Below, one piece after another: positions 45,501 through 48,500 of a stretch of 64,000 nucleotides of DNA; position 1 is the first letter of the stretch; each line of letters starts with the position of its first letter. The stretch lies in assembly GCF_056712565.1 (NCBI RefSeq), contig NZ_CM160072.1. One strand, 5' to 3'. Position numbers: made by a program.

Positions 45501-48500
45501 GCAATCTGGGCGACCATCTCATTGCCCGAACAAGAGAGATAGTTTTGCTTAAAGCCGGAATAGGTGTCGATGTTGCCCGTGGCCAGGTTTACCGACGCGT
45601 GCGACGTCTCTTCCACCGCACTAAGATACGCTTTTTGCAACGTTGGCCAGCCATATTCGGTGCCGATGGCATTGGCTGGATGAGCGGCAAACAAACTGTG
45701 CAATGAACTTTGGCTCGGAATATGACCTAAACCACACTCAGCCTGCATACTGCTATTCTGATCAAACAGCGCCCAGTCTTCGTTATTTTCCCGCACCGAT
45801 CCCTGTTCGTTGTCGGTTTCATCCGCCAGCCGTGGGCGTTTAAAGATATTGTTCGCTTCAATAATGCCCAACATATGGCCCCACATCCGCGCTTTGTCGG
45901 TATCGGGGCTGGTGATCACCGTAAAAATAACGTCTTTCTCATCCGAGGCAGTAAAATCACTGCGCATTCTCGCGGTGATGTGAGTTTTCACCCCCACGCC
46001 GCCTGGCTGGGTCAGCGTCAGAGTGGCCTCTCCGTTAGCATCAGTGCTCCCTTCATAGGTATGGGCGTCAACTTTGCGAACGTTACTGCCGCCATCAATT
46101 TGTACCGGATGCGTCTCCCACGCGGCGTCAGTTTGATTCTTACGGTTAATGCCGTCATCCAGATGCAGCGAAAAGTAGTAGTAAGCCAGCGGCTGATCGT
46201 TGTTCTTGCTATCGGTAATCGTCAGACGTAAAGAAGCCTCTTCCCCCACCTTTACTTTCATCGCTTTTATCGTCGAATCATAGCTGCCCGGCGTCAGTAC
46301 CAGCTTCGGTTCAACATCGGGCGCTTCTTTATCGACACAGCTCACAATAAACGTCGTATCGTCCGGTTTTTGCGCTTCGCTGCGGTTCGAAACATCCGCC
46401 GCATGGTGCTGGCCGCTCATCCCCGCCAGTGATGACCAGTAGAAATTACCCTGCATCGGCCAACCAGCCACATCCTGCACTGACGTTGGCACCACCGTCG
46501 CCAGCGCACCGAACTGACGCATTCCGGGCAAAATGTCGCAATGTTTATCCGCGCCGCTCCAGGTAAAGGTGGACCAGGTTTCATTGTGATCGTTAACCGT
46601 ACCGCCTTCATTATCGACTTCCGCCGCCAGTTTTGGTCGACTAAAAGTGTAATCACGGGCCTTCAGCGTATCGGGCATATGACCCCACATTGTAGCCTGC
46701 GGAACATCCGGGCTGGTGAGGACGGTAAAGATCACTGCCGTTTCACTGGCCTGAGCAATACCCGCGAGGCTCGCGACCAACGGCGTTTTTACACCAGGGC
46801 CGTTGGCCTGGGTGACCGTAACCGTGGCAACACCATTCGCATCGGTAGTACCACGATATTCCGTCGCGGTGGTGGTTAATTCGGTCGTGCCCAGTTTTAC
46901 AGGCGCAGTATTGTTCACCACACCCTGGCGGTTTTCAGCATCTTTGCGTTTGATAACAAAAGGAATATTCCCCACAACATTACCGACGCAATCTTTGGTG
47001 GTGACCGTTAACGTGATACTGCCCCCAACCGTCATTTTCGCCGCACCTGAGGATTCGTCATAGCCCGCAGCGCTGACGGAAATAAGGTCACCCTGCGCGG
47101 GCGCAATCTTCAGCGTCACTTTCTGATCGGCGAGCATCAGAACACTTTCATAGGGATAGCCCGTCGAGGTGAGTAAATATAACAGCGGCATGGTCTGCTG
47201 GGGATCAGGCTGCGCCCAGGCGACCAGCGAACGCCCGGCAAGTCCCTGTGCACAAAACGAGCGATCTGCGACTGGCTGTGGGTCCAGTAAGGTGTCCGGC
47301 GTGGCGGCATCCGCCCAAACTAAAGATACAGCCGGTGGCGTTTGGTTTTCCCAACGTGGGGTGGCAATGATATCGCCTTCTCTGTCTTGCGGGTTGGTGA
47401 CGAGCAATTTAGAGACGCTAACATCCGCGTTGAATTCACTCGGTTTAGCGGTAAACGCTACCTCATGCGTCTTTGTAGGATCGAGAAAGACACTGCCCTG
47501 GTAGACGGGTATGCTGGCGCTGTCGGCGGTGGGCACGGTACCGTTAAATTCGCCGACCGTATCTGAAGAGTCTTGCCATGCAGATTCTGCCCATGACCAC
47601 CCAGGCAGCATTGCGCTTATCAGCAATGCGCATAACACAAGGATTTTATTCAGGGTCAGGGACATGACAGAAACTCCACCGGTTGTTAAACGGACGCTTG
47701 TCGCATCAATATATTTTGCTTAATCCGGGATTAAGCAAAATATGCGGAAACAGCATTCCCTTGCGGGAATGCTGCTGAGTACGCGTTATTTGTGTTTGTA
47801 AATAATGTGAAGTTTGTAACCCTGTACCCCGTCGCCGTTGGTCGGGATGGAAAGTGCCTCTTTTCCATCGCGCGCAGGGCCGTTAAGGTTGGTTCTGGCT
47901 TCGTCGTTGGTCGCAGGGATGACCAAATTGTTATTATCGAAGCTTGAGTTAACGATGCCACCCGAAGTGCCAAGCTGTTGGCTGCTGCCAGAAAGTACCC
48001 AACGGAAGTCATAATTGGCGGTGACGTCAGCATCGGTACCCGCATCAAACTTGCCATTTTTGTTCTCATCCGAGTACAGTTTGGCCACGTAGGTTTTGCC
48101 AAGTTCGATTGGTGTGCTACCGTTGATAAGGTTGATACTGGTACCATCAACAAAGATGGCGACTTTCAGGTTCTGGTTAACCACCGGCCCCGGTGCAACG
48201 TTATCGCTGTCGCTTCCGCCGCCGCTGGCAGTAGAAACGTCATAAAGATGCAGCGCAGTCCCGACGTTTGGCGTACCGGTCTGCGTGGTTGGCGTAATTT
48301 CAATACCGATATAACGACCACGGTCGGCATCGGTAAGAGTGTAACTGGTCACCTTCGTTACCAGCTCTTTTGGATCCCCCCCCTGCGCATCCTTGTAGCT
48401 CATCCAGCGGATAGTATCGATAGTTTTCGCGTTATCGCCCAATCCCCCAAGATCCACGTCGCCTTCGGTATCACCAATTTCCCAACTTACGGTTAATTTA

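Follow-up and report, generated by a model that had tools for sequence, protein, structure and literature searches.

A perfect palindrome between sinI and ratA is one lineage's form of a conserved RNA hairpin in the CS54/ila cluster

The sinI-ratA junction

The window analysed here, a stretch of 64,000 nucleotides from contig NZ_CM160072.1 (assembly GCF_056712565.1), belongs to an Escherichia coli chromosome of the phylogroup-B2 type and holds the sinH-sinI-ratA cluster, also called 'ila' or CS54, which contributes to colonization of the gut and the urinary tract and of which the SinH product is a vaccine candidate (PMC12928451, PMC9937491). The gap of 120 nt between sinI and the ratA-like gene contains two inverted repeats, the GC-rich hairpin H1 and the perfect 33-nt palindrome H2, which belong to a module of approximately 87 nt. 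In both hairpins the pairing is preserved by covariation, with G·U pairs that are specific to one strand, and the perfect symmetry over 33 bp is one lineage's version of an RNA hairpin. There is good support for regarding the module as a previously undescribed cis-acting RNA motif that is confined to the sinI-ratA junction of this cluster, and the literature on the cluster and its transcription was found to hold no mention of an element in the sinI-ratA gap.

The genes and features of the junction are given below, where ORF stands for open reading frame and A3 for the alignment of 26 versions described in the following section.

~51026-51210, minus strand: AT-rich promoter region upstream of sinH (upstream sequence)
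48818..51025, minus strand: sinH, intimin-like inverse autotransporter, first gene of the cluster (ORF list and RefSeq annotation of the 100% identical ATCC 11775 region)
47786..48763, minus strand: sinI, SinI family autotransporter-associated protein of 325 aa (ORF list and RefSeq annotation)
47786-47788, minus strand: stop codon TAA of sinI, 9 nt before H1
47749..47776, minus strand: H1, GC-rich hairpin with GCAA tetraloop; perfect 10-bp stem at 47751-47774, 12 bp in the minimum-free-energy fold
47744..47750, minus strand: U-tract and linker UUUCCGC (most relatives: UUUUCCGC), which forms the 5' side of the lower stem of extended H2 (near-invariant A3 columns 43-49)
47711..47743, minus strand: H2, perfect palindrome of 33 nt; as RNA a 15-bp hairpin with a 3-nt loop (inverted-repeat search and RNA fold)
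47732..47739, minus strand: 5' core arm of H2, UUUGCUUA (A3 columns 54-61, identical in 25 of 26)
47715..47722, minus strand: 3' core arm of H2, UAAGCAAA (A3 columns 88-95; a single right-arm mismatch in two sequences)
47704..47710, minus strand: 3' flank AUUGAUG (most relatives: GUUGAAR), which forms the 3' side of the lower stem of extended H2 (A3 alignment)
47674..47677, minus strand: GGAG, Shine-Dalgarno sequence for the ratA-like gene, 8 nt upstream of its ATG, read directly in the sequence
39615..47665, minus strand: ratA-like gene for a giant immunoglobulin (Ig)-repeat adhesin, ATG at 47665 (ORFs and annotation of ATCC 11775)

On the transcript the sinI stop is followed by H1, H2 and ratA, and the gap reads UAA, a 9-nt spacer, H1 (CAGCAUUCCC-GCAA-GGGAAUGCUG, 47774-47751), UUUCCGC, the 33-nt H2, AUUGAUG, approximately 30 nt, GGAG and AUG. 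A first-pass annotation of the window had described a perfect 16+1+16 palindrome 46-78 nt upstream of the ratA-like start and, next to it, a hairpin with a 10-bp stem, and both descriptions are accurate: the 16-nt arms of the palindrome (47711-47726 and 47728-47743) are 100% complementary with 1 nt between them, the arms of the hairpin (47751-47760 and 47765-47774) are 100% complementary around a 4-nt loop, and the distance agrees with the minus-strand ATG at 47665. The palindrome is the longest perfect short-loop inverted repeat within the window, where its 27-nt core matches only itself at up to three mismatches (0 expected from 100 shuffles). The 141-nt intergenic RNA folds with -48.1 kcal/mol compared with -28.0 +/- 3.4 for shuffled sequences (z = -5.95), the innermost pairs of the 33-bp palindrome being unable to form in RNA. 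Over the 901 nt around the palindrome the window is 100% identical to the ATCC 11775, UTI89-like and APEC O1 genomes.

Conservation and distribution

The frequency of the island was counted among 5426 complete E. coli genomes, of which 1713 carry it, in at least three very divergent alleles and with one module locus per genome. Relatives were gathered by a scan with a SinI profile, with one genome taken per species, by exact-protein look-up, which added Salmonella enterica, S. salamae, S. bongori, Kluyvera, C. freundii and Pseudocitrobacter, and by a pattern scan of metagenomes; the resulting alignment A3 brings together 26 different versions, which come from six genera or more. The module was found in the E. 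coli alleles, E. albertii, the three Salmonella species, Citrobacter, Kluyvera, Pseudocitrobacter and Superficieibacter, at loci among which SinI is only 40-68% identical. All 26 sequences share one layout, which consists of H1, UUUUCCGC, four variable nucleotides, UUUGCUUA, a purine-pyrimidine pair, a variable loop, a second purine-pyrimidine pair, UAAGCAAA, four variable nucleotides and GUUGAAR. Extended H2 has a median identity to the window of 74%, with an essentially invariant core of 8+8 nt, and in the same comparison the flanking coding sequence, with 240 nt taken from the 3' end of sinI and 240 nt from the 5' end of ratA, is approximately 63% identical. With both hairpins kept in the 26 versions, the element picked out in the window alone is non-random and conserved, and as a noncoding module more conserved than the genes around it, it marks a candidate control point in the expression of RatA relative to the putative transporter SinH. 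A hairpin of the same shape and position with another stem sequence is found in Citrobacter R56 (UUUGUUGAGU...ACUGAACAAA; locus L014, 4360-4480) and in Leminorella (UUUUGAAAAG...UUUUUCAAAG; locus L020, 3955-4090), both of which have only the UUUG...CAAA base in common with H2.

The module occurs as a single copy per locus, always directly after sinI. A covariance-model search gave one hit per locus, without any further copy elsewhere in the window or in the flanking sequence of related loci, and among 120 metagenome stretches that matched the pattern, 30 score at least 60 bits and all of these adjoin a SinI homologue wherever upstream sequence exists, the remaining stretches scoring approximately 35 bits or less as chance palindromes. 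The search of phages gave no match, nor does the ratA-ratB junction of the Salmonella plasmid record contain the module. At E <= 10, neither the window nor Salmonella gave an Rfam match overlapping the H2 palindrome; the sole match was a sub-threshold CRISPR-DR21, antisense over H1, with 19 bits against a gathering score of 48. A second genomic copy in E. coli was considered and rejected: BLAST reported approximately 940 extra places for 938 genomes, only those with the perfect palindrome, and these places, which were not inspected, are inferred to reflect self-matches of the palindrome, read on the opposite strand.

The only plasmid match (locus L035, 5233-6083 of CP150497.1, an IncFIB plasmid of S. 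Infantis) has the insertion sequence IS26 exactly at the border of H1 and H2, so that extended H2, ratA and ratB are carried without sinH, sinI and H1. Between H1 and H2 there is also an REP/BIME-like insert of approximately 190 nt with partial duplication of H1 at two loci (L009, 4335-4600; L034, 2465-2730), and an insert of approximately 45 nt at a third (L026, 4340-4480). From these sequences the H1/H2 junction seems prone to insertions, with extended H2 always adjoining ratA. That this border attracted insertions is also what might speak for a relic of an REP/BIME, ERIC or MITE element or of an insertion sequence end without a locus-specific role. REP, BIME and ERIC elements, however, occur in many copies per genome in unrelated intergenic regions, whereas the module is single-copy in E. 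coli genomes, is found after sinI only and has neither terminal repeats of its own nor target duplications, which makes such an origin extremely unlikely.

Covariation and strand asymmetry

Predicted partners pair in 95.4% of the cells of A3, as opposed to 38-51% when the partners are slid against each other, and double compensatory changes are present in 13 of 24 pairs; none of 500 column shuffles reached the observed values. H1 contributes double changes in six of its nine pairs, with 99.5% of cells paired, and H2 compensatory changes in seven of 15 pairs; in the core of E. albertii, a compensated G-to-A change replaces a G-C by an A-U pair. The covariation signal is distributed across many columns and several genera, and RNAalifold recovered, unguided, both helices together with an extension of H2.

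This extension arises as the pairing runs past the palindrome into its non-palindromic flanks, UUCCGC with GUUGAA. The linker (columns 43-49) pairs with columns 100-106 (GUUGAAR), and extended H2 as a whole joins columns 43-64 to columns 85-106, which makes 22 positions with one conserved mismatch. The pairs C46-G103, G48·U101 and C49-G100 are found in 26, 25 and 21 of the 26 sequences, respectively, and at columns 47/102 a C·U mismatch in 22 sequences is replaced by A-U in four. Double compensation in the extension is recorded for Citrobacter MGH106, with U-A and A-U at locus L013, and the lower stem is part of the minimum-free-energy folds of the Salmonella, Kluyvera, E. albertii and Leminorella versions.

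The pairing is, moreover, that of one strand. On the sense strand 52 cells hold G·U or U·G, and A·C, which equals a wobble pair on the antisense strand, fills one; with the extension included, sense-strand wobble pairs occur in 18 pair columns and A·C in five. Many versions are not DNA palindromes and are paired only as sense-strand RNA, and with a covariance model derived from A3 the sense strand reaches 60-93 bits, against an antisense echo of approximately 30 bits. The 8-nt arms stand 9 nt apart in 20 sequences, 8 nt in four, 11 nt in one and 26 nt in one. The strand bias of the G·U pairs could not have been produced by selection on duplex DNA, and the combination of covariation, strand asymmetry, variable spacing and extension into the flanks argues for an RNA structure in the sense transcript. 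That palindrome and hairpin form one conserved module of approximately 87 nt which acts in cis as RNA within the sense sinH-sinI-ratA transcript is held with moderate confidence.

The first-pass annotation had favoured a binding site for a dimeric regulator; an example would be a LysR-type TTA-N9-TAA operator in control of a ratA promoter. With inverted, invariant half-sites, TTTGCTTA and TAAGCAAA, a 9-nt spacer in 20 of 26 sequences and perfect symmetry over 33 bp in the window strain, the element does look like a LysR T-N11-A, TetR or LacI operator, and in E. coli the promoter of iatB, which is orthologous to sinH, is activated by LeuO, a regulator of the LysR type (PMC6714894). A spacer of 8, 11 or 26 nt, however, is beyond the tolerance of a rigid dimeric protein, and neither the frequent G·T with its bias to one strand (52 G·U versus one A·C cell) nor a stem that covaries inside and outside the core and pairs into non-palindromic flanks is expected of an operator; in addition, no promoter is predicted in the gap and the ATG is too close to accommodate -35, -10 and leader. 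The regulator site is, on this evidence, highly unlikely. In an informal comparison with the sites of CRP, FNR, Fur, PurR, SlyA, RcsAB and IHF and with LysR T-N11-A, only a trivial T-N11-A match was found. A lesson from this case is that what appears as a perfect DNA palindrome can be the single-lineage form of an RNA hairpin.

H1, possible termination and probable read-through

In the four folds examined, 7-12 nt separate the sinI stop from the start of H1. The hairpin has an energy of -17 to -24 kcal/mol, closes with a GNRA or UUCG-type tetraloop across versions and has upstream an A run able to pair with the U run. Its GC-rich stem, its tetraloop, its position near the stop, its U run and the maintenance of structure while the sequence drifts are features of intrinsic terminators and stabilizer hairpins. 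Operon-internal attenuator or stabilizer hairpins are exemplified by the stem-loops after major-subunit genes in fimbrial operons and the REP hairpins between malE and malF, and the module is of a kind already known in being an intercistronic mRNA structure. In contrast to intrinsic terminators, H1 is fused to a second hairpin of conserved sequence which is able to pair with the U-tract, and the downstream ratA seems to depend on read-through.

No sigma-70-like promoter was predicted in a scan of the gap (47666-47785, minus strand). As no promoter is evident there, ratA is probably expressed by read-through, most simply from the sinH promoter, and H1 would act as a leaky intrinsic terminator and/or as a protective hairpin at the 3' end of the sinHI message. 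A sigma-70 promoter at the palindrome, with TTGCTT or GTTGA as the -35 element, was rejected; a conserved -10 box is missing and the distances to the ATG are impossible, the conserved GTTGA lying only 35-60 nt from it. A sigma-54 promoter was likewise rejected, since TTGC could be a -12 element but the -24 GG is absent from the sequence. A chromatin immunoprecipitation site of the sigma-54 holoenzyme (TGGTACGGATCTTGCCAT) has been reported within sinH (STM2517) of Salmonella LT2 (PMC3844500).

Two further candidate roles were discarded: a mini-ORF after H2 (GUG/AUG-NNN-UGA) is not conserved, and for pairing of the H2 core with the ratA Shine-Dalgarno sequence or another site of the island there is no conserved complement, other TTTGCTTA 8-mers occurring at chance frequency.

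Extended H2 and possible transcript processing

In the read-through RNA, the palindrome would fold and extend via UUCCGC/GUUGAA to a helix of approximately 22 bp, distorted near the base by a conserved C·U/G·U, and this helix would set the amount of ratA message relative to sinHI, after or during transcription. The likeliest route would be endonucleolytic processing of the RNase III type which separates the two parts of the transcript, whereby cleavage in H2 would leave sinHI ending in H1 and give ratA a 5' end of its own; as a second route, the untranslated gap of 120 nt may be made structured and resistant to nucleases and Rho. The invariance of the 8-bp core implies that a protein or a nuclease recognizes this sequence specifically. 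That the module is a structured intercistronic RNA which sets ratA expression via termination, read-through, processing or stability appears about evenly probable, and RNase III as the specific nuclease can be proposed tentatively.

RNase III needs at least 11 bp from the cut to the end of a helix of approximately 22 bp (PMC6212723, PMC1540722), which is the length of extended H2; the enzyme accommodates approximately 22 bp of double-stranded RNA, intergenic regions inside transcripts are over-represented among the sites it cuts in vivo, and G-C/C-G pairs are preferred between the cuts (PMC6212723). The core arms consist of three A/U pairs, a G-C and a C-G pair, and again three A/U pairs, a composition reminiscent of these preferences, and the proximal box of RNase III prefers A/U pairs beside a G-C pair (PMC1540722). 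For manual threading of A3 the box pattern was defined as proximal (G-C, W, A-U, W) and distal (U-A, U-G), 1-4 and 10-11 bp from the cut, respectively; UAAG and UUUG fit the proximal pattern, and U101·G48 together with U102-A47 resembles a distal box. Extended H2 shares with signals such as T7 R1.1-type sites, rpsO-pnp and the rnc leaders (PMC1540722, PMC6212723) its length, the intergenic position within a transcript, a distortion between a short lower and a long upper stem, A/U pairs flanking a G-C step and a conserved U·G. The island is absent from K-12, the strain behind the RNase III maps.

Several points weigh against the main reading, from termination at H1 to cleavage in H2. The U-tract of H1 has only three to five U compared with the ~7-9 nt expected in intrinsic terminators and runs into the conserved CCGC, the terminator d-scores, calculated with the d'Aubenton-Carafa formula, range from -50 to +15 and are mostly negative to weakly positive, and the terminator scan did not call H1. 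The earlier proposal that H1 terminates the sinI transcript is upheld in part: a GC-rich stem, a stable tetraloop and three to five U, kept in every relative by compensation, speak for it, and the shortness of the U-tract and the borderline scores speak against it. The extension is weakened in the window lineage, where the 3' flank starts with A instead of the G of most relatives and a C·A results at columns 49/100. No register of the threaded helix fits both RNase III boxes, the best one being 1 bp out, their spacing is non-canonical, and the loop side offers only approximately 7 bp and no distal box. The core is far more conserved than the cleavage rules require, and RNase III specificity as described would not itself demand an invariant core of 8 bp. 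The more distant relatives Lelliottia and Buttiauxella have H1 only, without H2 and without the U-tract, so H2 is not universally required for rat-like genes. The sequences in A3 are phylogenetically related, and cell counts overstate the number of independent events. Finally, termination, read-through and cleavage are all steps which we infer.

Alternatively, H1 and H2 could be a passive spacer which keeps the gap folded against Rho, exonucleases and RNase E without a specific factor, with H2 as a 5'-proximal stabilizing hairpin for the ratA segment. Of the 120 nt approximately 87 lie in the hairpins, what is left ahead of the Shine-Dalgarno sequence is rich in A and G and poor in C in every species, and in Leminorella and Citrobacter R56 the structure is kept despite a replaced sequence, all of which would suit a spacer. 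The 16 invariant nucleotides and the conserved CCGC/GUUG flanks, however, are left unexplained while H1 and the outer pairs of H2 drift, and a purely passive role is rather doubtful.

Possible recognition by the transcription machinery

The core might also be recognized by RNA polymerase or an associated factor. As in processive antitermination of the put, EAR or nut kind, or as another RNA that binds a protein or the polymerase, the nascent two-hairpin RNA would bind RNA polymerase or a factor, and the polymerase would then withstand Rho and intragenic terminators over the 5-8 kb of ratA. Like HK022 putL/putR and the Bacillus EAR element the module has two adjacent stem-loops, within ~70-90 nt, before a long transcription unit, a similarity by layout only; it stands, always attached, immediately before an unusually long gene, and the IS26-associated capture on the plasmid kept H2 with ratA and lost H1. 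Specific recognition would fit the invariance of the 8-bp core together with the conserved C·U/G·U distortion, and neither ops nor boxA is available for that job in the cluster leader or the gap. On the other hand, the loops are not conserved, H1 resembles an ordinary terminator rather than an antiterminator, and the ratA-ratB junction of Salmonella, which also precedes a giant gene, is without the module. Put and EAR RNAs are expected to have bulged stems, and H2 is a plain, nearly perfect helix without such bulges. In the Rfam scan put and EAR were unscored, and whether Rfam holds models for them was left unchecked. Antitermination of this kind is considered unlikely.

Recruitment of RfaH through ops or of Nus factors through boxA was rejected, as no match was found in the leader or the gap and matches over the window are at chance level. 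Inside ratA, at 44726-44737 on the minus strand, GGCGGTAGCACG differs by one mismatch from the ops consensus GGCGGTAGnnTG, six such matches being found in the window where 3.6 are expected.

A more far-reaching proposal, according to which the H2 core and the C·U/G·U distortion dock a dedicated RNA-binding factor, or RNA polymerase in a put-like manner, and thereby license transcription and expression of RatA, is quite improbable. If it were true, a dedicated riboregulatory switch would operate in a virulence-associated two-partner inverse-autotransporter operon of Salmonella, extraintestinal pathogenic E. coli and Citrobacter. Independently of this proposal, the module is a clean and well-supported candidate for a new family of cis-regulatory RNA in Enterobacteriaceae.

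Other observations in the window

For genes orthologous to the ratA-like gene the Pfam domains BIg21 and InvE_AD are recorded. In the window this gene is split into ORFs at 42287-47665 (1792 aa) and 39615-42170 (851 aa) by a 1-bp deletion near 42295, where an A is missing after GGG in comparison with ATCC 11775, in which the ratA-like coding sequence is intact with 8052 nt. The split reflects either a frameshifted pseudogene in the window strain or a sequencing error.

In almost every locus a stretch encoded immediately upstream of sinI shares 27-38% identity with the last ~115 aa of SinI (in the window, 48818-49170 compared with 47786-48130, minus strand), and this stretch is taken as the C-terminus of SinH. 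This likeness agrees with the proposal that SinI and the Rat proteins are substrates of SinH (PMC4943183).

At a distance from the cluster, a run of unannotated ORFs of 823, 201, 114 and 145 aa extends over 12530-16450 on the minus strand; these look like phage structural genes, and this part of the window may contain a prophage. One of the ORFs contains, at 15739-15751, a boxA-like 13-mer with one mismatch, which is probably a chance occurrence.

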